From Candidatus Omnitrophota bacterium (GTDB lineage Bacteria; Omnitrophota; Gorgyraeia; Zapsychrales; Zapsychraceae), in assembly GCA_016212005.1 (NCBI GenBank), contig JACRHP010000043.1:99-64098 (forward strand): a stretch of 64,000 nucleotides of DNA, in the 5' to 3' direction. Under the pieces are notes generated by a model, which saw only the letters and a list, made by a program, of their open reading frames with translations, had not been told where the DNA came from and did no database searches. The position numbers and the translations under genes are program-made. Below are positions 38,798 to 47,847 of this stretch, piece by piece; within the stretch, counting starts at the first letter, position 1, and each line of letters opens with the position of its first letter.

Positions 38798-39148
38798 ATG
38801 ACTAAAGGATCTTTGCCTGTGCGCGGGAATAGATCCTTTGAAGATTTGAAGAAAAGAAACGAACATGGCGCTGAATATTGGAGCGCGAGGGACCTTCAGT
38901 CGCTATTAGGGTACGGGCAGTGGCGGCGTTTCGAGGATGCCATTAAAAGGGCGATCACTTCCTGTAAACAGTCGGGAAATGAACCTGGTCATCACTTTGC
39001 CAACGCCGGCAAACCGATAACGGGCGGGAAGGGGGCGGTGCAGATCGCACAGGACTACCACCGCCCGCGTAAAGCGCGGCATGTTTTCGGGCCATCGTTT
39101 CGCGGCGGATCATTTGGGTCGTTGGGCTGTAAGAGAGAAATGAGATGA
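38798..39148 (+). pseudogene. DinD-like (DNA-damage-inducible protein D) N-terminal fragment
   Basis: RBS AGGAGGG and ATG 38798. FEDLKKRNEHGAEYWSARDLQSLLGYGQWRRFEDAIKRAITSCKQSG...HF parallels E. coli DinD residues about 8-70 as I recall that sequence. Similarity ends after DYH, and the ORF is 116 aa versus about 270 aa for DinD. Confidence 0.55.
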
Positions 39149-41670
39149 TAAAGGAAGCCAAAGCAAGGATTCTGATCAACGACCTTCTCCGGAGGTCCGG
39201 CTGGCGCTTTTTTGACGACGAGACCGGCCCCGCCAACATCGCGCTTGAAGCAAACGTCAAACTCAAGAAGAAGGGCATTGAAGATCTCGGCGACGATTTC
39301 GAGAAGACCGCCACAGGCTTTATTGATTACCTTCTGCTGGACGAACGCGGCTTCCCGATAGCCGTTCTTGAAGCCAAGTCGGAGAAGTTCGACCCTCTCG
39401 TCGGCAAGGAACAGGCCAGGAAATACGCCCGTTCGCAGAATGTCCGGTTTGTCATCCTGTCCAACGGCAATCTGCATTACTTCTGGGACCTGGAGCAAGG
39501 CAATCCGGCCATCATCACCGGGTTCCCGACGCCGGATTCCCTGGGACATTTTCACGCGTTCAAGCCCAACCCCGACGCGCTGGTCGTCGAGAAGGTGGAG
39601 ACCGACTACGTCGCCATCACCCAGAACCCGGGTTACCGGAACGATCCTCGCTGGAACGATCCCGGGCAGCGTGATGCCTTCATCAAAGACGCGGAGCTGA
39701 AGTTCCTGCGCCCCTACCAGATCCGGGCGATTGCGGCGCTTCAAGACGCCGCGCGCAACGGCGGGACGCGGTTCTTGTTCGAAATGGCCACCGGCACGGG
39801 GAAAACGCTTATTGCCGCCGCTGTCATAAAGCTTTTTCTACGTACATGTAACGCCAACCGCATCCTGTTCCTGGTAGACCGCCTCGAACTGGAAGATCAG
39901 GCGAGAAAACGCTTTGTGCAGTTTCTCAAGAACGATTTCCGCACGGTCATCTACAAGGAAAACCGCGACGACTGGCGCAAGGCCGAGATCGTGGTTTCCA
40001 CGGTCCAAAGCCTCCAGTTCAACAACAAGTACCGGCGGCTTTTTTCGCCGACCGATTTTGACCTCCTGATTTCCGACGAGGCGCACCGCTCCATCGGCGG
40101 CAACAGCCGCGCGGTGTTTGAATACTTCATCGGTTACAAGCTCGGCCTGACCGCGACGCCGAAGGACTATCTCAAGAAGATTGACCCGGCCAGGATCAGC
40201 GCGCGCGATCCGCGCGAGTGGGAACGCCGCCAACTGCTGGACACCTATAAGACATTCGGATGCGAGAGCGGCGCGCCGACCTTCCGCTACAGCCTCGTTG
40301 ACGGCGTGCGCGAAGGTTACCTGCTCAATCCGGTTGTCGTGGACGCGCGGACGGAAATCACCACGGAATTACTCGCCGAAGAAGGCTATTCTATCATGCA
40401 GGAAAACGAAGACGGGGAATTGGTCGAGCAGACTTTTTTCGGCAAGGATTTTGAAAAGAAGTTTTTCTCGGACGAGACCAACCGTATCTTCTGCGAAACC
40501 TTCTTGAAGAGCGCCCTTCGTGATCCGTTGAGCGGGGAGATCGGGAAGAGCATCGTGTTCTGTGTCCGGCAGGACCACGCCACCCGGATCACCCGGACGC
40601 TCAACGAAATGGCGCGCGCCATGTTTCCCGGCAAGTACACCTCCGACTTTGCCGTTCAGGTGACCTCCAATGTCGGCGACACCGCCCAGCAAATGGCGGT
40701 CAGCTTCGCCAACAACAACCTCAACGGCCACACCCGGTTTCTGGAAGGCTACATCAGCGCGAAGACACGCGTCTGCGTGACTGTCGGCATGATGACGACC
40801 GGTTACGACTGCGAAGACCTCCTGAATATCGTCCTGCTTCGGCCGATCTTTTCACCGACGGATTTCATCCAGATCAAAGGCCGCGGAACACGCAAGTTCA
40901 CTTTCCGTTATGTCGAGAGGGAAGGCGGCCAGGCGCAGGAGCACACGAAGCCGAAAGAGAAGTTCAAACTTTTCGACTTCTTCGCTGTCTGCGAGTATTT
41001 TGAGAAGAAGTTTAACTACGATGAGATTATCGAATTGCCGCCTATCACAGGAACCGGCGGGGGTGGCGGTGGAGGTGGCGGCGGGACCGATAAGGACTTC
41101 ACGAATGTGAACCCGGATCCGCTCAAGACGATGATTGAAACACCGGTTCCAGTCTACGGCATGAGGATTGATCGCAAGTTCTTCGAGAAATTCGAGGACA
41201 AGGTCAAGGCCGCGCCGGAAGTGCGCGAGCGCTACGAGCGCGGCGACATCAAGGGGGCGGAAGAGATTGTCGTCGCCTCCCTGTTCAATAAACCGGAGGA
41301 CTTTTTCAACCTTGACAAGCTCCGGAAAGCCGTCCAACTGGACAGGCGGGTTACGCTCCGCGAGATTCTGGCCAAAGCGTTTGGTGAGATTGACCGCTTC
41401 AAGACCAAGGACGAGTTGCTTGAAGAAGAGCTGGCGAAGTTTGTTTCCATCCACAAACCCGACGCCGCCCACATACTCGTGATCCGGCAGTTTTTCAAGG
41501 CGTATGTGACCGACGGCGGAGTCCGGGCCATCGTGGATTCCCGTGAGTTTCCACGGCTGGCGGACAATCCCAAGGTTTCACTCGCGGATGTCCGCGCCCT
41601 CGGCCAGTGGCGGGATGTTATCCCGGAATACGTGAAGGACTATGTTTCGTTGAACCAGTTTGCGGCGTAG
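39145..41670 (+). CDS. hsdR: Type I restriction enzyme R subunit (HSDR_N nuclease + SF2 helicase + EcoEI_R_C-like C-terminus)
   Basis: PD-(D/E)xK region FIDYLLLDERGFPIAVLEAKSE. Helicase motifs FEMATGTGKT, LLISDEAHRS, QIKGRGTR. The start overlaps the dinD-fragment stop (ATGA). Confidence 0.85.
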   Translation: MIKEAKARILINDLLRRSGWRFFDDETGPANIALEANVKLKKKGIEDLGDDFEKTATGFIDYLLLDERGFPIAVLEAKSEKFDPLVGKEQARKYARSQNVRFVILSNGNLHYFWDLEQGNPAIITGFPTPDSLGHFHAFKPNPDALVVEKVETDYVAITQNPGYRNDPRWNDPGQRDAFIKDAELKFLRPYQIRAIAALQDAARNGGTRFLFEMATGTGKTLIAAAVIKLFLRTCNANRILFLVDRLELEDQARKRFVQFLKNDFRTVIYKENRDDWRKAEIVVSTVQSLQFNNKYRRLFSPTDFDLLISDEAHRSIGGNSRAVFEYFIGYKLGLTATPKDYLKKIDPARISARDPREWERRQLLDTYKTFGCESGAPTFRYSLVDGVREGYLLNPVVVDARTEITTELLAEEGYSIMQENEDGELVEQTFFGKDFEKKFFSDETNRIFCETFLKSALRDPLSGEIGKSIVFCVRQDHATRITRTLNEMARAMFPGKYTSDFAVQVTSNVGDTAQQMAVSFANNNLNGHTRFLEGYISAKTRVCVTVGMMTTGYDCEDLLNIVLLRPIFSPTDFIQIKGRGTRKFTFRYVEREGGQAQEHTKPKEKFKLFDFFAVCEYFEKKFNYDEIIELPPITGTGGGGGGGGGGTDKDFTNVNPDPLKTMIETPVPVYGMRIDRKFFEKFEDKVKAAPEVRERYERGDIKGAEEIVVASLFNKPEDFFNLDKLRKAVQLDRRVTLREILAKAFGEIDRFKTKDELLEEELAKFVSIHKPDAAHILVIRQFFKAYVTDGGVRAIVDSREFPRLADNPKVSLADVRALGQWRDVIPEYVKDYVSLNQFAA

Positions 41671-41688: not shown

Positions 41689-42288
41689 ATGAATAACTTA
41701 ATGATACCGGCTGAAAAGATACAGAAAGTGATTTACCTGATCCGGGCACAGAAGGTCATGTTGGACCGCGATTTGGCTGCAATGTACGGTGTGCCTACAA
41801 AGGTTCTCAAGCAGGCCGTGAGGCGCAATGCCACACGTTTTCCCGCTGATTTTATGTTCGTCCTTACGCGGGAAGAATTTGCCGATTGGAGGTCACAATT
41901 TATGACCTCCGATGCCGATCGGGCAGAGTTTTTGAGGTCACAATCTGTGACCTCAAAAACGGACCCTCGCGGGGGCACGCAGTATCCGCCAATGGTTTTT
42001 ACTGAACAAGGCGTCGCCATGCTGTCGAGCGTGCTCAACAGCGAACGGGCCATTCAGGTCAACATCGCGATCATGCGGACGTTTACGCAGTTGAGGCAAA
42101 TGCTGTTATCGAATACAGAACTTGCCCGGAAACTGGCCGACTTGGAAAAGAGGTACGACACGCAATTCAAGGTGGTTTTTGATGCGATTCGCCAGCTCAT
42201 GACCCCGCCCGATCTGCCCCGCAAGCCGATCGGTTTCCATGTGCGGGAGCCGGGCGCGAAATATGGCATCCGCCGCAAGGAAAAATGA
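41689..42288 (+). CDS. ORF6N (KilA-N-like) DNA-binding domain protein
   Basis: VMLDRDLAAMYGV, RFPADFMF, RSQxxTS motif (present twice) and FTEQGVAMLSSVL. This is a common passenger between type I R-M genes. Confidence 0.8.
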   Translation: MNNLMIPAEKIQKVIYLIRAQKVMLDRDLAAMYGVPTKVLKQAVRRNATRFPADFMFVLTREEFADWRSQFMTSDADRAEFLRSQSVTSKTDPRGGTQYPPMVFTEQGVAMLSSVLNSERAIQVNIAIMRTFTQLRQMLLSNTELARKLADLEKRYDTQFKVVFDAIRQLMTPPDLPRKPIGFHVREPGAKYGIRRKEK

Positions 42289-42291
42289 CCG

Positions 42292-44685
42292 ATGCTCGAT
42301 TCCGAAACCAAATCCCGTATTGACTCCGCGCGCGACATTCTCGTCGGCAAGGTGCCCGACCCGAAATCGCAGGTGGAGCAGATCACCATCGCGCTGATCT
42401 ACAAGTTCATGGACGACATGGACCGCCAGTCCGAAGAACTCGGCGGCAAGGCGGCGTTCTTTTCCGGCGGCTTCAAGAAGTACCGCTGGGCCAACCTGCT
42501 TGACAAGCGTCTCGGCGGCCATGAACGCCTGATCCTCTATGCCGAAGGCCTCGAGAAGATGAACGTGAACAAGAACATTCCCCAGCTTTTCCGGGACATC
42601 TTCAAGGGCGTGTTCCTGCCTTATCGCGATCCCGAGACGCTCAACCTGTTCTTAAAAGAGATCAACGGCTTCACCTACGACCACAGCGAACGGCTCGGCG
42701 ACGCCTTCGAATACCTGCTGTCCGTTCTCGGTACACAGGGCGACGCCGGGCAATTCCGCACCCCGCGCCATATCATTGATTTCATCGTCGCCGTGGTGGA
42801 CCCGAAGAAGAACGAGACCGTCCTTGACCCTGCCTGCGGCACGGCGGGTTTTCTCATATCGGCATTCAAGCACATTTTGAGGAGTTGCTCCTCAAAACCC
42901 TCACCCCGTTCCCCTCTCCCAGTGGGAGAGGGGCCAGGGGGAGAGGGTGCGGCAACGCGGCTTAGGAGAGGGAGCGAGCACTATCGCGGCGGTTTCGATT
43001 TTGCCGGGTTGAAGGAACGGGCGAGAGAATTCAGGCAAACGCAAACAGACGCGGAAAAGCTGCTTTGGGAATTGCTCCGGGACCGTCAGCTCGGCGGCGC
43101 GAAGTTCCGGCGTCAACACCAGTTCGGGGACTACATCTGTGACTTCTACTGCGCGGACGCGAAGTTGATTGTGGAATGCGATGGTTCCGTTCACAACACA
43201 GATCGGCGAAAAAAGACTGATCAAAAACGTGATGCCTATCTCAAATCCCAGGGTTTGACTGTGCTTCGCCTTGAAAATGCTCAAGTCTTGAGCGACACCG
43301 AAGCCGTTTTGTCCGCAATTTTCGACCAACTCCCCTCTCCCCCTGGGAGAGGGGATGGGGGTGAGGGTATCCCCGATACAGGGGATAGTGGTATCCCCGG
43401 CGAACTGTCTCCAGATGAGCGTGCGCAAATGATGGCGAATTCCCGGGGATATGACATCGCGCCCGACATGGTGCGGCTGTCCCGCGCCAATATGTACCTG
43501 CACGGTTTCCCTAATCCCGTCATCCACGAGTACGACACGCTGACCAGCGAAGAGCGGTGGGACGAGCGGTGCGACGTGATTATGGCCAATCCGCCGTTCA
43601 TGTCGCCGAAAGGCGGCATCCGCCCGCACAACCGGTTTTCAATCAAGGCCAAGCGCAGCGAAGTGCTTTTCGTGGATTACATCGCTGAACATCTCAACCC
43701 GGGCGGCCGCGCCGGTGTTATCGTGCCCGAGGGGATCATCTTCCAGAGCCAAAACGCCTACAAGGCCCTGCGGAAGATGCTCGTAGAGAATTACCTCTGG
43801 GCCGTGGTCAGCTTGCCCGCCGGCGTGTTCAATCCTTATGAGGGCGTCAAGACATCGATCTTGTTCCTCGACAAGTCACTGGCCAGGAAGACGGACACCA
43901 TCGTCTTCTTCAAAATCGAAAACGACGGCTTCGGCCTCGGCGCACAGCGGCGACCGATAGACAAGAACGACCTCCCGCAGGTGAAGGCCGAACTTGACGC
44001 CTACCTTCACGCTCTGCGCAGCCAAAAATTCATAGAACCCTCTCCCTCTGGGAGAGGGCAGGGTGAGGGCTTCCAGCCCACCTGCGGCCTGATCGTTGCG
44101 AAAGAAAAAATCGCCGCGAATGGAGACTACAACCTCAGCGGGGAGAGATATCGGGAGGGGGCAGCGCAGTCCACGCATTTCCCTTGGAGGACGATAGAGT
44201 CCATCGTCGAGACAATCACTCCACCAGCGAAGATTCAGAAGACAGCGTTCGGGCGGGTCGGTCGATTCCCCATCATCGATCAATCGCAAGATGACATTGC
44301 AGGATGGACCGATGATGCGTCCACGTTGATTCGCCCCACCAAACCGCTGGTAATCTTTGGCGATCACACCTGCGCAGTTAAAATCGTTGACACGCCTTTC
44401 GCGCAAGGGGCAGACGGCATCAAGATTCTCCAGACGATAGACGCACTTGATCCGCGATTCCTATTTCACGTCCTTCGATCCAGACCGATAGAGAGCGACG
44501 GCTATCAAAGACACTATTCCAAACTCAAGGAACACCAAATCCCACTGCCGCCGCTGGAGGTGCAGAAGGAGATCGTGGCGGAGATCGAGCATGAGCAGAG
44601 GGGCATAGAAGCTTGCAAGTCGTTGATCGAAAAACATCAGCAAAAAATCAAAGCCCGTATTGCGAAGGTGTGGGGGGAGAAGTGA
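42292..44685 (+). CDS. hsdM: Type I R-M methyltransferase fused to a single-TRD half specificity subunit, interrupted in-frame by a DUF559 domain
   Basis: HsdM motifs FRTPRHI, VLDPACGTAGFL and IMANPPF. A DUF559 block lies between motif I and NPPF (AEKLLWELLRDRQLGGAKFRRQHQFGDYICDFYCADAKLIVECDGSVH). The C-terminal 200 aa resemble one HsdS TRD plus conserved helix (IPLPPLEVQKEIVAEIE). Confidence 0.8.
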   Translation: MLDSETKSRIDSARDILVGKVPDPKSQVEQITIALIYKFMDDMDRQSEELGGKAAFFSGGFKKYRWANLLDKRLGGHERLILYAEGLEKMNVNKNIPQLFRDIFKGVFLPYRDPETLNLFLKEINGFTYDHSERLGDAFEYLLSVLGTQGDAGQFRTPRHIIDFIVAVVDPKKNETVLDPACGTAGFLISAFKHILRSCSSKPSPRSPLPVGEGPGGEGAATRLRRGSEHYRGGFDFAGLKERAREFRQTQTDAEKLLWELLRDRQLGGAKFRRQHQFGDYICDFYCADAKLIVECDGSVHNTDRRKKTDQKRDAYLKSQGLTVLRLENAQVLSDTEAVLSAIFDQLPSPPGRGDGGEGIPDTGDSGIPGELSPDERAQMMANSRGYDIAPDMVRLSRANMYLHGFPNPVIHEYDTLTSEERWDERCDVIMANPPFMSPKGGIRPHNRFSIKAKRSEVLFVDYIAEHLNPGGRAGVIVPEGIIFQSQNAYKALRKMLVENYLWAVVSLPAGVFNPYEGVKTSILFLDKSLARKTDTIVFFKIENDGFGLGAQRRPIDKNDLPQVKAELDAYLHALRSQKFIEPSPSGRGQGEGFQPTCGLIVAKEKIAANGDYNLSGERYREGAAQSTHFPWRTIESIVETITPPAKIQKTAFGRVGRFPIIDQSQDDIAGWTDDASTLIRPTKPLVIFGDHTCAVKIVDTPFAQGADGIKILQTIDALDPRFLFHVLRSRPIESDGYQRHYSKLKEHQIPLPPLEVQKEIVAEIEHEQRGIEACKSLIEKHQQKIKARIAKVWGEK
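42875..43367 (+). mobile_element. DUF559 (Vsr-fold endonuclease) cassette flanked by about 36-nt terminal inverted repeats, inserted in-frame in hsdM
   Basis: Left end is ccctcaccccgttcccctctcccagtgggagagggg (42898-42933). The reverse complement of the right end (43332-43367) is ccctcacccccatcccctctcccagggggagagggg. A perfect palindrome TTTTGAGGAG-ttg-CTCCTCAAAA lies at 42875-42897. The exact limits are uncertain. Confidence 0.5.
44038..44069. repeat. Solo copy of the DUF559-element terminus (in right-end orientation)
   Basis: ccctctccctctgggagagggcagggtgaggg closely matches the right TIR at 43332-43367. It encodes EPSPSGRGQGEGF at the HsdM/HsdS-like junction. Confidence 0.55.
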
Positions 44686-46061
44686 ATCTAGAAGAACAGA
44701 TTAGAGTTATTAATAACCCTCAAGAGTTCGTAGATTTGTGTAATACGATTTTTACCGAGAAATATGGGAATGATTTTCAGATTATTGATGGAACAAGGGC
44801 TGATGATGGAAACGACGGGTATGTTTATTCAGAAAAAAGAATTTTTGCTATTTATTGCCCAGTTAAACCCGAAAACAAAAGAGATGAAGATTTTAAAAAG
44901 AAAATAGGTGGTGACTTAAATAAAGCTAAAGAATTACAAGACACAGGAAAGCTGGAAGTCAAAAAATGGACTTTTATTACTCCGTGCAAGCTTAGCAATG
45001 GAGTGATTTCATATCTGGTCGAGAAAGCGAAAGAATTCAATCTTGAAGCGAATCAGATAGAGTCTGCCTTCTTGGCCGGAGAATTATATAAGCACCAACA
45101 TTTGTTAAGTAAATTCCCTCGCTTGCATATCTCGCAGATAGAGCCGAAATTGGATGAAATTTTGAAAGAGCTAAGGGGGAGCAAAGACATTGTGGAATTG
45201 CCTAATAAACCATATACACAGAAAAATGAGAAGCCAAGCGAAGACCTAAAAAAGGTGTTTAAAATATTAAGTATAGAGCAAGCTGAGAAAAGTAAGTCCG
45301 AATTAAAAATTATATTCTATAAAACGTCAGATAAGATTGCCCAAGTAAATGCAATATTAGGTTTACTAAAATGGTTTAATCCGCTAGAAGATAGCGACGA
45401 AGACATGATTGATTGGTGCGATCAAGGAATGAAAATTGCCGAGACTTTGAAAGACAAAGGACTTCGTGCGATATTTCTTTCTAATAAGGCTTTTTATCTT
45501 TCACAAATTTGGTCCAGAGAAGATATGAATACCGCATATACTCTTAAAGCAGGCAATTTAATAGGCATTCAAGTAATTTCAAGTGAAGAAATACAAAGGA
45601 AAGTGAAGATGTTGCACGATCTGGAAACTCAGTTTTTGAGTGCCTTTAAAGAAGCTTTAGATATTACTATTGAAATCAAAAATGGCTATTTAATAGCGCA
45701 AATATTATTAAACATTGGGCAAGCAGCGGGGGTAAGATACATTCATCTTAATGCCTTGAGGATTGGTCGAGCAGAACAAGAAAAAAGACTATCAAAAGAG
45801 GCATTGCTTCAGGCAAGAAATCTTTATTCAAGCATGGGTTATGAATTAGGCGTTGGTTACGCGCTGCATAACTTAGCTAATCAGCTTTTTATATTTGGAG
45901 AAAAAGAAGAGGCTATGCAATTAAATAAAACTGTTGCCGAGATTGCCAAGAAACACAATGATGAATCTTTATTACAAACGGCATCTTGGTTGAGAGAAAG
46001 TTTAGAAACAGACAGGATTCCTGATTATATTCATGGTGAAAGAAGAGAACGGAAAAGATAA
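44682..46061 (+). CDS. Unknown protein: N-terminal Mrr/PD-(D/E)xK-like region + C-terminal helical-repeat (TPR-like) region
   Basis: GTG 44682 overlaps the hsdM-S stop (GTGA) and follows GGGGGGAGA. The N-terminus FVDLCNTIFTEKYGNDFQIIDGTRADDGNDGYVYSEKRIFAIYCP resembles restriction-endonuclease cores. The C-terminus contains GYELGVGYALHNLANQLFIFGEKEEAMQL. There is no Walker A motif. The gene is AT-rich. Confidence 0.55.
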   Translation: MNLEEQIRVINNPQEFVDLCNTIFTEKYGNDFQIIDGTRADDGNDGYVYSEKRIFAIYCPVKPENKRDEDFKKKIGGDLNKAKELQDTGKLEVKKWTFITPCKLSNGVISYLVEKAKEFNLEANQIESAFLAGELYKHQHLLSKFPRLHISQIEPKLDEILKELRGSKDIVELPNKPYTQKNEKPSEDLKKVFKILSIEQAEKSKSELKIIFYKTSDKIAQVNAILGLLKWFNPLEDSDEDMIDWCDQGMKIAETLKDKGLRAIFLSNKAFYLSQIWSREDMNTAYTLKAGNLIGIQVISSEEIQRKVKMLHDLETQFLSAFKEALDITIEIKNGYLIAQILLNIGQAAGVRYIHLNALRIGRAEQEKRLSKEALLQARNLYSSMGYELGVGYALHNLANQLFIFGEKEEAMQLNKTVAEIAKKHNDESLLQTASWLRESLETDRIPDYIHGERRERKR

Positions 46062-46064
46062 TAG

Positions 46065-46100
46065 TACGAAATACGAAATAACCCGTGAATAACCCGTGAC
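46065..46100. repeat. Tandem direct repeats in the intergenic gap of the AT-rich cassette
   Basis: (tacgaaa)x2 followed by (taacccgtga)x2. The 12-mer cgaaatacgaaa is shared with the hairpin arm at 55797. Confidence 0.5.
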
Positions 46101-46201
46101 AGGCACGAATTTTCACAACGCCACAAATAATTCCTCGAAATTTCTGAGGGGAGAATCAAAGCCCCCTATTGCGAAAGCAGGGCGCCAGCAAATTTTTTCA
46201 T

Positions 46202-46993
46202 ATGCTAATTCAAATCAAAAAAGTCGAAGCCAGGCAGTTCAGAAGAGTATTGAAATCCGGCAGGACAACTCCCTTGCTATTTGAATGCGAGGACGTCGCA
46301 ACTGGCCAGAAAGAGGAGTATGTTGTAAAATTGAAGGGCAGTTTGGACAGGAGAGACCGGGGTTTGATTTGTGAACTGGTCTCCTCGACTATTGCCCGGT
46401 TTATGGGGTTCAATACGCCACCCATAGCCGTAGTCAATATTGATGCTCAAATGGCTTCGCTTATTGATGCAATTCCCAAAGATAAAATAGACTCAAGCAT
46501 TGGCTTGAATTTTGGCAGTAAATTACTTTCCGGAGGCTACTTTAATCTGCCCAACGATTATCCATTGACCAATCATATGGAACAGGCTGCGGCAGAAATC
46601 ATCATATTTGATGCGTTGATTCAGAATTTCGACCGGAGAGCCGGGAAACCGAATATGTTTATTAAGGGGGATGAGATTTATATTTTTGATCATGAACTGG
46701 CATTTTCTTTTCTTGAGCTGATCGGAAAGAGAGACAGTCCTTGGGAACAGGCCGCATTTTCTAGTTGTGTGCGGGGGCACTTTTTTTACAGGCAGTTAAA
46801 GGGGAGGACGTTGAGCTTGGAAAGAATTACGCAGGGCATTAAGAACATGGGCGATGATTTCTTGTTAGATGTCCAGGCGAGTATTCCTGAAGAATGGAAG
46901 GATGGGGAAATTGGTCATATTTTTGATCATTTAAAGGCAATCGTAGAAAACGCCGACCGGTTCATTGAAGGCGTAAGGAGGGAAATGGTATGA
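46202..46993 (+). CDS. HipA-like kinase-fold protein (HipA_2-type, DUF3037-associated)
   Basis: Catalytic-loop-like DALIQNFDRRAGKPNMFI and IFDHELAF. N-terminal TPLLFECED...EEYVVKLKG. ATG at 46202, with an alternative TTG at 46169. No obvious SD. Confidence 0.7.
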   Translation: MLIQIKKVEARQFRRVLKSGRTTPLLFECEDVATGQKEEYVVKLKGSLDRRDRGLICELVSSTIARFMGFNTPPIAVVNIDAQMASLIDAIPKDKIDSSIGLNFGSKLLSGGYFNLPNDYPLTNHMEQAAAEIIIFDALIQNFDRRAGKPNMFIKGDEIYIFDHELAFSFLELIGKRDSPWEQAAFSSCVRGHFFYRQLKGRTLSLERITQGIKNMGDDFLLDVQASIPEEWKDGEIGHIFDHLKAIVENADRFIEGVRREMV

Positions 46994-47847
46994 AAAAGCA
47001 ATATTCGTATACGGTTTTGCGATACATCCATGACATTACTACCGAGGAGTTTATTAACATCGGCGTGGTTTTGTATTCACCGCAGGAGAAATTTTTGAGC
47101 GCCGCGTGCACGAACAAATATGGCCGGTTGTCCAGGATGTTTTTTGATGTTGAAGGAGATCGGTTTAAACAGGTTGTCAAATATATCCAGGATCAAATTA
47201 ATGAGTTGGGCGGCAGAATCCATCAGGAATTAGAATTTGAGAAGCTGCCTGATTCTGTAAACAAGATTGTCGGTAAAATCTTGCCTCCTGACGACGGATC
47301 TTTGCAGTTTTCCGATGCGGGAAAAGGGGTAGCTGAAGATTTACCGGAAACACTGGATGAATTATTTGTGAGGTATGTCGCGAAATATCTGGAGAAATCG
47401 GATTTAAGAAGCAGATCTGATGAAGAGGTTTTGAAATCGTTTAAGAAAGAATTCGGAGAAAAGGGAATCCTGGACGCGTTGAAGCCATTTAAAGTGGAGT
47501 CCGAAGACGATGAACATGAATTCCCCTATGCCTGGAAAAACTCAACATGGCATGTTCTGCAGCCTCTTTCATTTGATTTGGTCGATCCAGAATCTATCAA
47601 AAGAAAAGCACATACTTGGCTGGGTGTGGGCCATAGTCTGCTGCGCCCGGAGGAAGTGAAAAAGAAGATTCGGGAAGGAGTAACATTGAATTTTCTCTTG
47701 GGGGCCCCCAAAGAGCAAAAGCTGTTGAACTATTTTAACAAAGCAAAAAGTATTTTAGACAAGATGCCTTGTGAGCATAAATTTGTCCATGAAGAAGAGG
47801 CGTCGGCTTTTGCTGAAGAAATCAAAAAAGATTTGGGAAGCCATTAA
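46990..47847 (+). CDS. DUF3037 domain protein
   Basis: The N-terminus YSYTVLRYIHDITTEEFINIGVVLYSP is the DUF3037 signature. The ATG overlaps the kinase stop (ATGA at 46990-46993). Confidence 0.75.
   Translation: MKKQYSYTVLRYIHDITTEEFINIGVVLYSPQEKFLSAACTNKYGRLSRMFFDVEGDRFKQVVKYIQDQINELGGRIHQELEFEKLPDSVNKIVGKILPPDDGSLQFSDAGKGVAEDLPETLDELFVRYVAKYLEKSDLRSRSDEEVLKSFKKEFGEKGILDALKPFKVESEDDEHEFPYAWKNSTWHVLQPLSFDLVDPESIKRKAHTWLGVGHSLLRPEEVKKKIREGVTLNFLLGAPKEQKLLNYFNKAKSILDKMPCEHKFVHEEEASAFAEEIKKDLGSH

Follow-up and report, generated by a model that had tools for sequence, protein, structure and literature searches.

We analyzed a 64,000-nucleotide (nt) stretch of contig JACRHP010000043.1 from a Candidatus Omnitrophota bacterium (the window) and focused on a nuclease domain of the DUF559 family that lies in frame inside a type I DNA methyltransferase gene, hsdM, between two inverted palindromic repeats. 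The host gene is one uninterrupted open reading frame (ORF) of 797 amino acids (aa). Pfam recognizes N6_Mtase in two stretches, DUF559, HsdM_N (weakly), and one target recognition domain (TRD) of the Methylase_S family. Because a split N6_Mtase and a single Methylase_S TRD share one ORF, the host is an HsdM-HsdS fusion. We found the hallmarks of a type I HsdM: N6_Mtase with motifs I and IV, an adjoining hsdR, and a specificity TRD, here a single one in the fused S part. All methyltransferase motifs are intact, and the host part of the AlphaFold model matches the solved type I HsdM structures 2okc, 5ybb, and 2y7c. An exact-sequence look-up of the protein returned no record; in the homology search, the protein (from a Candidatus Omnitrophica metagenome-assembled genome) is annotated as "N-6 DNA methylase" only. 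The features of the gene are as follows.

42292 to 44685, forward strand: hsdM-hsdS fusion gene, host of the insert
42826 to 42852, forward strand: motif I (DPACGTAGF) of the host methyltransferase part
42875 to 42897, no strand: perfect 10+10-nt palindrome TTTTGAGGAG-ttg-CTCCTCAAAA, abutting the left repeat; encodes ILRSCSSK; DNA fold z = -4.9
42898 to 42947, no strand: left repeat, a palindromic unit of the BoxC/TMECO type; encodes the linker PSPRSPLPVGEGPGGEG
42979 to 43332, forward strand: DUF559/Vsr-like nuclease domain, HsdM aa 230 to 347, with no start codon of its own
43333 to 43367, forward strand: right repeat, a "+" unit of the BoxC/TMECO type, CCCTCTCCC-CCT-GGGAGAGGG-GATGG-GGGTGAGGG; encodes PSPPGRGDGGEG
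43368 to 43404, forward strand: degenerate duplication of the repeat tail, 24-nt period; encodes IPDTGDSGIPGE; end of the insert relative to empty alleles
43588 to 43599, forward strand: motif IV (NPPF) of the host methyltransferase part
44038 to 44069, forward strand: third, solo repeat unit, in frame; encodes EPSPSGRGQGEG (aa 582 to 593), between the methyltransferase core and the TRD

A preliminary description of this locus had proposed a DUF559 domain in frame inside hsdM with inverted termini, and we found the features it quoted at their coordinates in the uninterrupted ORF. It had taken the insert for an insertion of about 165 codons. The domain and its arms are real, but alignment with uninterrupted alleles places the insert after motif I at aa ~200 to 371 (nt ~42889 to 43404), so that ~172 codons stand in place of a 7-residue loop, DAKGHST, and the insert is not a pure insertion. 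The inverted arms (42897 to 42933 and 43332 to 43368) are 37 nt long and 92% complementary. The hairpin core CCCTCTCCC-N3-GGGAGAGGG occurs three times in the window, versus 0.02 expected, and the outer arm twice, versus 0.00 expected (100 dinucleotide shuffles). The left terminus is a hairpin, as had been described, and belongs to a full palindromic repeat unit in which a "-" unit (42898 to 42932) and a "+" unit (42912 to 42947) have the hairpin in common (DNA fold, -22.1 kcal/mol; z = -4.7). The solo unit at 44038 had been missed; its site is also occupied in the homologues P0005, P0007, and P0098. Of the two palindromes said to abut the insert, the one at 42875 to 42897 is real, but the tatcccc/ggggata stretch (43368 to 43404) is the degenerate duplication of the repeat tail; tail duplications of a similar kind occur in loci L002 and L005. 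The palindrome at 42875 to 42897 was not seen in the homologous loci examined and is unique to the window allele; it could be a template-switch or repair scar.

The cassette (~430 to 510 bp) is a start-codon-less DUF559 domain between two inverted repeats. Since it keeps the hsdM frame and contains neither a stop codon nor a start codon of its own, it is translated as part of HsdM, in which it forms an internal domain. All three frames stay open through the repeats (PLPxGEG, PSPxGRG, and LSxGERE), which encode disordered linkers rich in P, S, and G. As the preliminary description had stated, the insert is neither an intein nor an intron: Pfam gave no Hint or intein match, there are no splicing blocks (the insert starts ...SSKPSP and ends ...IPGE/LSPDE), and the ORF is continuous. 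The DUF559 domain is the sole coding content of the cassette, with no transposase. An Rfam search of the region gave only sub-threshold chance matches to eukaryotic microRNA models and to one small RNA model (whalefall-1). We rejected a foreign composition of the cassette, whose GC content (0.577) is indistinguishable from that of the host gene (0.566). We also rejected an antisense gene: the ORF at 42901 to 43629, off the hsdM frame, is not conserved, and 61 of the 80 metagenomic relatives described below have no open antisense frame.

The nuclease domain matches Pfam PF04480 (DUF559) with 123.4 bits against a cutoff of 20.6 (E = 4.9e-36; profile positions 3 to 108 of 109; aa 240 to 347). Its catalytic-type residues, in HsdM numbering, are D284 (nt 43141), E295, D297 (43180), H301 (43192), D310 (43219), and R313. 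In alignments, D284, E295, D297, H301, and D310 are invariant or nearly so among 30 relatives and correspond to the active-site positions of Vsr and I-Bth0305I (PMC3239194). The closest solved structure is 3hrl, a DUF559 protein of Neisseria gonorrhoeae (E = 1e-25), and the homing endonuclease I-Bth0305I (3r3p) is a weak match (E = 0.02). The preliminary description had suggested modeling the fusion, and the AlphaFold2 model (43-sequence alignment; mean pLDDT, 75) gave the insert as a separate folded domain on disordered linkers. DUF559 is confidently folded at approximately aa 245 to 349 (pLDDT, 80 to 90), and the modeled linkers at 201 to 243 and 350 to 370, which are the repeat-encoded peptides, are disordered (pLDDT, ~30). 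The solo repeat overlaps a low-confidence stretch of the model (587 to 590). Because the repeats encode disordered P/S/G linkers, the nuclease hangs from the loop after the motif I helix.

We compared 66 in-frame cassettes for evidence of selection. The DUF559 domain has 66% aa identity, with identities of 0.71, 0.82, and 0.41 at the three codon positions, and 4-fold sites are 0.33 identical, that is, saturated. Saturated synonymous sites together with conserved amino acids indicate purifying selection on the DUF559 protein. The flanking repeat units, which a fuzzy pattern located at 50 left ends and 40 right ends of the 66 cassettes, have 0.84 nt identity; their stems are at least 90% conserved, and only the loops vary. 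Since this figure compares with 0.33 at synonymous sites, the repeats are constrained as DNA (or RNA), beyond the linker peptide. Fusion ORFs of 700 to 1,300 aa remain open over ~34% aa divergence of the insert, with synonymous sites saturated. The preliminary description had allowed that the insert might inactivate the methyltransferase. We consider this unlikely because motifs I and IV are intact, the fusion ORFs are conserved over the long term, and the insert is modeled as a separate domain.

Judged from their sequence, the terminal inverted repeats (TIRs) of the preliminary description are copies of the known BoxC/PIT/TMECO intrastrand-triplex repeat. The TMECO pattern is CCCTCNCCC-N3-6-GGGNGAGGG-N3-GGGNGAGGG (PMC4666352). 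We found no exact match to it; four units in the window match when the second loop may be 1 to 6 nt long, and the loops observed are 2 to 5 nt. Apart from their 3-nt loop, copies from E. coli and Citrobacter have the same sequence as the window units. Folding in silico covered the hairpin part of the putative triplex. Because each unit holds a palindromic hairpin, the flanking units are also direct repeats of each other. Holder et al. in 2015 reported 3,610 copies in 262 proteobacterial genomes, 23 of them in MG1655, where they are always intergenic (PMC4666352). They credited the name PIT to Maher and co-workers in 2000 and BoxC to E. coli work of the 1990s. According to the same study, the triplex forms in vitro and is linked to local genomic instability and rearrangement hotspots in E. 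coli; the repeat was not found associated with mobile elements, and its function is not known (PMC4666352). TMECO is reported to be missing from Salmonella. Unlike the intergenic E. coli copies, all four window units lie inside the coding sequence of hsdM.

The preliminary description had considered that the termini might be unique, and we found the repeat to be widespread in other genomes. A pattern scan of one genome per species returned at least 120 stretches from many phyla, including Pseudomonas, Enterobacter, Citrobacter, Klebsiella, Xanthomonas, Variovorax, Planctomycetes, Chloroflexi, Acidobacteria, Omnitrophota, and Myxococcota. Most repeats are solo, and a DUF559 gene was near the repeat in 2 of 120 loci among the matches listed (stored locus of up to 8 kb). 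Matches are present in 4,372 of 5,426 E. coli genomes at a median of 5 places per genome, e.g., between ppiC and ilvC. Inverted unit pairs 45 to 65 nt apart without an ORF, which have the look of MITEs (miniature transposable elements with inverted repeats), also occur, as do fully palindromic units. Such ORF-less arrangements are found at L034:1074-1206, L120:3281-3390, L124:730-845, L040:3648-3692, and L110:5671-5717, and in L120 and L110 the inverted symmetry runs on into the flanking sequence. The triplex unit also forms part of longer tandem repeats, whose periods are ~151 nt and ~95 nt, at L008:421-756 (Pseudomonas crudilactis) and L060:2440-2567 (Citrobacter); in the latter, a terminator-like hairpin precedes each copy of the unit.

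We surveyed the 120 best HsdM homologues for the cassette. An ancestral domain generally carried by close homologues without such flanks had been named as an alternative, but only 6 of the 120 (the window, Kiritimatiellae, Deltaproteobacteria, and three metagenomic proteins) carry DUF559 at the exact window site, always with both repeats. The flanking peptides of the carriers are alike (PSPxPLPxGEG ... PSPxGRGxGGEG), and their DNA flanks are conserved as A/CCCTCACCCCC-NN-CCCCTCTCCC-NNN-GGGAGAGGGG on the left and the reverse complement on the right. Approximately 12 to 15 of the 120 have only a solo or degenerate repeat at the window site (e.g., P0004, "LPSPSGRGAGGEG"), and three further homologues have a solo repeat at the window's second site. 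The remaining alleles are empty, mostly reading ...ILKxNT-DAKGHST-LTPDxKG..., and the window's own clade has a shorter empty loop, e.g., NNENLTPDE. In a neighbor-joining tree of 112 hosts with the loop removed, DUF559 carriers fall in at least 4 separate clades nested among DAKGHST alleles. Outside the loop, every carrier shares 88 to 94% identity with an empty neighbor, whereas identity among the carriers is only 77%. Because deletion of a cassette cannot regenerate DAKGHST, allelic exchange (gain or replacement) is needed. As in homing genes, a nuclease ORF is present in some alleles of the host gene and absent from others, at one fixed site.

The closest relatives of the insert (60 to 70% identity) are free-standing ORFs of 136 aa ending in ...LPSPxGRGxGGEGL* or fragments fused to HsdR or HsdM. 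Among the 80 best metagenomic relatives whose loci we surveyed, 71 lie within an hsdR or hsdM gene whose orientation they all share, and 9 are truly free-standing. In about 66 of the 71, the frame is kept at both ends and hundreds of open codons extend upstream as well as downstream; 4 to 5 have frame breaks. Besides the window site, we found at least 8 further cassette sites in HsdR and HsdM, and both hosts are complete around the insert by Pfam. The sites include the following.

HsdR, within the N-terminal nuclease domain: between ...DGIPVEF and RRWExVRLIDF
HsdR, just before Walker A: between ...NRAVEALLR and NRIGVFWHTQGSGKS
HsdR, before the DEAH box: between ...GGVIFTTIQKF and NIVVIADEAHRSQ
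HsdR, a further site: between ...EWFKVWRE and KATLELQ
HsdM: the window's site, the junction of HsdM_N and the catalytic domain, and a C-terminal site
HsdM, site M3: the loop after motif I of a classical HsdM of a different family, structurally equivalent to the window's site

A DUF559 profile search of 1.84 billion cluster representatives gave 36,422 matches at E ≤ 1e-3, 17,727 at E ≤ 1e-10, and 336 at E ≤ 1e-30. Nineteen of the 20 large proteins among the best profile matches are restriction-modification enzymes. The large hosts are HsdR, HsdM, HsdS (with the insert between the two TRDs), type ISP enzymes, and type IIG enzymes of the Eco57I/MmeI type. Repeat-like peptides flank the domain on both sides in most of the 8 large hosts inspected and on the downstream side only in one. 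On a Synechocystis sp. B12 plasmid (L232, CP101716.1), a DUF559 gene with triplex-type repeats lies between fragments of BREX pglX, and in L218 and L229 DUF559 genes adjoin DUF1156 (methylase-like) genes; the host range of the cassette therefore exceeds classical restriction-modification. What first appeared as a single insert is thus one member of a large cassette family found almost only in restriction-modification genes. Two or three DUF559 stretches occur in the single proteins P0241 (377 aa), P0244 (1,214 aa), and P0295 (711 aa), so the cassette can occur more than once per ORF. We rejected a phage origin, since viral contigs hold only distant relatives (≤41% identity).

In the DUF559 tree, cassettes group mostly by insertion site; among the few exceptions are the site before the DEAH box, which is polyphyletic, and the window copy, which falls with two copies from HsdR. 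This is the pattern expected of lineages that would stay faithful to a site and rarely jump. The density of repeat units is 28-fold higher within 200 nt of the domain (5.1/kb versus 0.18/kb). Of 69 more distant units, 55 are within long ORFs; 44 keep the frame of the same hsd ORF, frequently where other alleles bear a cassette. The literature on DUF559 and on TMECO/BoxC, as far as it can be searched, describes no such cassette.

The association of DUF559 with these repeats extends beyond the cassette. We ran a sequence-agnostic detector ("C-rich hairpin plus mirror G-tract") on 15 DUF559 loci of cultured bacteria (E. coli, Neisseria, Sinorhizobium, Azospirillum, Sphingomonas, Novosphingobium, Shinella, Deinococcus, Synechocystis, Pseudanabaena, and Picosynechococcus). 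In 13 of the 15, repeat units lie within 300 nt of the DUF559 gene. Near that gene we counted 24 units in 13.6 kb (1.76/kb), versus 8 in 97.7 kb elsewhere in the same loci (0.082/kb), so that triplex-type repeats are enriched approximately 20-fold at DUF559 genes, E. coli ycjD included. The stems are lineage specific (CCCTCTCCC, CCCCTCCCC, CCTCCCCCC, and TCCCCCC), with motif variants of this kind in five cultured groups: Gammaproteobacteria, Betaproteobacteria, Alphaproteobacteria, Cyanobacteria, and Deinococcota. No link between DUF559 and the repeat is reported in the searchable literature on either.

In E. coli K-12 (L129, NC_000913.3 1351030-1351830), ycjD has a degenerate hairpin at its stop codon, and ~170 nt downstream a duplicate of the last ~40 nt of the gene and a TMECO unit lie between ycjD and fabI. 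The fabI-ycjD-sapF region is whole in 3,346 of 5,426 complete E. coli genomes. We looked for a clean empty site for ycjD and rejected the candidate in O157:H7 (L224), where the region is replaced by a TetR/RND efflux island with a breakpoint ~40 nt before the BoxC unit. Operons, too, contain free-standing DUF559 genes flanked by triplex-type repeats (L225 of Sphingomonas parapaucimobilis, L226, L221, and L231 of Deinococcus), at housekeeping or catabolic positions such as between sufB and sufC and in hpa and paa clusters. Free-standing homing-endonuclease genes are often placed between operon genes in the same way. A tentative wider hypothesis, which we hold as possible and no firmer, is that DUF559 nucleases are the missing enzyme partner of BoxC/PIT/TMECO repeats across bacteria, much as RAYT is for REP, and recognize or cut the repeat structure; one branch would then have become a non-splicing, intein-like homing cassette in restriction-modification and BREX genes. 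If true, this partnership would explain how the repeat spreads and why it marks unstable loci.

Taken together, we favor the reading that the insert is an evolutionarily mobile, intein-like, non-splicing nuclease cassette that is tolerated as a linker-tethered domain and that probably spread by nuclease-driven homing; we put its probability at roughly 0.55. According to this model, the cassette would act like the homing endonuclease of an intein minus the splicing, relying on host translation and persisting where insertion on flexible linkers is tolerated. Homologous recombination would carry it from allele to allele, and cuts made by its nuclease in cassette-less or repeat-only alleles would probably stimulate this spread. 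Decay by deletion between the two palindromic hairpin cores would leave an in-frame solo repeat such as the one at 44038; alternatively, solo units could come first and serve as landing sites for the cassette. HsdM would most likely still be active and merely carry an extra nuclease domain. The TIR-bounded mobile element of the preliminary description thus survives as a discrete cassette with allele polymorphism at a fixed site and in-frame recurrence elsewhere, but its ends are not specific to the element. We can only speculate about the restriction-modification niche. It may reflect the frequent horizontal transfer and allelic exchange of such genes, or the penalty of losing modification while restriction is active; or the nuclease, which lacks a DNA-binding module, may borrow the DNA binding of its host enzyme.

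Several observations weigh against this reading. A target-site duplication, which the preliminary description had proposed to look for, was absent from 29 junction pairs across sites, and within the window the repeat is confined to the hsdM gene. We saw no sign of recent mobility, in that none of the cassettes found at separate sites or in hosts far apart were near-identical. The 40 aa flanking the carriers' cassettes show no extended co-conversion (near/far identity ratio, 1.105, versus 1.085 and 1.065 for controls). Cassette divergence (~34%) is of the same order as host divergence (~23% between carrier alleles), and part of the pattern could therefore come from long vertical coevolution in which alleles are replaced only now and then. 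The trees are neighbor-joining trees on short alignments, and details of the DUF559 tree (118 residues) are not robust. Nor does the domain come with a separate module for DNA binding, of the kind that I-Bth0305I has in its NUMOD motifs.

The main rival is that DUF559 is a useful accessory nuclease module shuffled because it is useful, with the P/S/G peptides as mere linkers; it could give M or S subunits a cleavage activity of their own or replace the nuclease domain of type IIG enzymes. The almost exclusive residence in restriction-modification proteins fits this explanation, as do the purifying selection, the intact active site, the conserved fusion ORFs, and a domain near the N terminus of some Eco57I/MmeI-like hosts (P0311 and P0307), the usual place of the type IIG nuclease. 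It does not readily account for at least 9 unrelated insertion points, some inside the HsdR nuclease domain or between helicase motifs, or for carriage by only ~5% of alleles per family, scattered in the host tree. Nucleotide conservation of the flanks goes well past what a linker needs (0.84 versus 0.33 at synonymous sites), solo repeats occupy the same sites, and the window already holds an intact hsdR. We find it less likely than the homing reading; adaptive use and mobility are not exclusive. It is unlikely that recombinogenic BoxC/TMECO units do the spreading and that the DUF559 ORF is a passenger between two of them. In its favor, TMECO loci are rearrangement hotspots in E. coli (PMC4666352), 118 of the 120 genomic matches among those listed have no DUF559 gene in the stored locus (up to 8 kb), hosts hold many solo units, and small ORF-less elements bounded by repeats occur in L034, L120, and L124. 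A pure passenger should decay, yet we found strong purifying selection and invariant catalytic residues, and lineage-specific motif variants flank distant DUF559 genes (1.76/kb versus 0.082/kb), which looks like coevolution of enzyme and repeat.

That the domain is an ancestral architecture, repeatedly lost and never mobile, is very improbable. The similar divergence of cassette and host and the mostly site-specific lineages would agree with it, but the DAKGHST loop of most empty alleles (shorter in the window's clade) cannot arise by deletion of a cassette, carriers are nested in empty clades with neighbors 88 to 94% identical, and the sites and host families are multiple and unrelated. We give the least credence of all to a programmed inversion that would switch hsdM off and on by flipping the segment. 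In its favor, the flanks are inverted repeats, inversion would place 10 stops in hsdM, and DUF559 proteins are enriched (odds ratio, 14) among predicted targets of programmed inversion (PMC9881135). The inverted triplex repeats beside DUF559 genes may produce this enrichment as a side effect. Against it, all 71 hsd cassettes are in the sense orientation and none is inverted, and we found no recombinase gene in the ORFs scanned beside the cassette.

The neighborhood of the host gene includes the following genes.

39145 to 41670, forward strand: hsdR, type I restriction subunit, 841 aa, intact; Pfam ResIII (E = 4e-38), SWI2_SNF2, and HSDR_N
41689 to 42288: ORF6N-domain gene (antirepressor-like, by Pfam), between hsdR and hsdM
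44613 to 46061: 482-aa ORF, overlapping the 3' end of hsdM by 73 nt
46169 to 46993: HipA_2 kinase gene, downstream of the 482-aa ORF
46990 to 47847: DUF3037 gene, after the HipA_2 gene

In related loci, the position between hsdR and hsdM holds ORF6N (L002) or KilA-N (L004 and L007) genes, and because of this equivalence the gap looks like a conserved accessory slot of this type I system family. The C-terminal part of the fusion (44100 to 44685) has one TRD and ends past the conserved coiled-coil region. Most homologues have two TRDs (~815 aa without any insert), and P0013 is a "half-S" form like the window protein. The block directly downstream of hsdM (44613 to 47847) has a GC content of 0.33 to 0.44, versus 0.57 in the hsd genes. 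In L007, hsdM is likewise followed by a 482-aa protein, which has DUF8370/DUF8371 and resembles the window ORF in length and position. In L005, a cassette-bearing hsdM is followed by a HipA_2/DUF3037 pair, as in the window.

The combination of a homing-type nuclease of the Vsr fold with palindromic repeats in frame and with the BoxC/TMECO motif is new, while its parts are known and it is not a wholly new category. BoxC/PIT/TMECO repeats have been followed in E. coli since the 1990s and in hundreds of genomes (PMC4666352), and their physical link to one nuclease family makes their function and spread testable. The cassette would represent a third arrangement by which a selfish nuclease can live in conserved genes: it needs neither intron nor intein, and its own flexible linkers double as its DNA-level ends. 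Its near-exclusive residence in restriction-modification and BREX genes suggests either a specialized parasite of defense systems or a natural plug-in nuclease module. Either would matter for the evolution of defense systems, as a possible route to chimeric defense enzymes. The finding also bears on annotation, since such proteins are now labeled plain "N-6 DNA methylase" or "very-short-patch-repair endonuclease."

Compared with known BoxC/PIT/TMECO copies, the window units have the same order of C-rich arm, loop, GGGAGAGGG arm, loop, and mirror GGGTGAGGG arm, with near-identical sequence. They differ in that they are coding, are translated as linkers, form an inverted pair on the two sides of a nuclease ORF, and have 2 to 5 nt in the second loop instead of 3 nt. 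Vsr-like EDxHD homing endonucleases are an established family (I-Bth0305I, PMC3239194). With these and with the homing endonucleases of inteins, the cassette shares the Vsr fold, the conserved E/D/H/D residues, and expression within a host gene, as well as fixed sites by conserved motifs, allele polymorphism, and site-specific lineages. In contrast to them, it has no intron, no intein splicing domain, and no NUMOD region, and the relationship is distant (E = 0.02). Because there is no intron and no splicing domain, the insert remains in the mature protein. The inverted ends (37 nt, 92%) recall a TIR transposon or MITE, but the cassette has neither a target-site duplication nor a transposase. 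Rickettsia palindromic elements (RPEs), which are MITE-like (PMC10969869), are likewise short palindromes in frame in genes and translated as an extra peptide, and the solo units at 44038 and in many hsd genes behave like them. RPEs, however, are ~150 bp long, belong to one genus, and bring no enzyme, whereas the units here are ~35 nt long, cross phyla, and can bracket a nuclease domain. The E. coli protein YcjD and the NGO1050-type protein (3hrl) belong to the same Pfam family, and triplex-type repeats lie beside ycjD and N. gonorrhoeae DUF559 genes; these are free-standing ORFs of ~110 to 120 aa with their own start, whereas the window copy is internal to HsdM. In the REP/RAYT (REPIN) system, too, a single-domain enzyme gene lies between inverted copies of a far more numerous dispersed hairpin repeat, and the repeat sequence varies by lineage along with the enzyme gene. 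RAYTs, however, are HUH/Y1 transposases, whereas DUF559 is a PD-(D/E)xK/Vsr-type nuclease that carries out no strand transfer alone.

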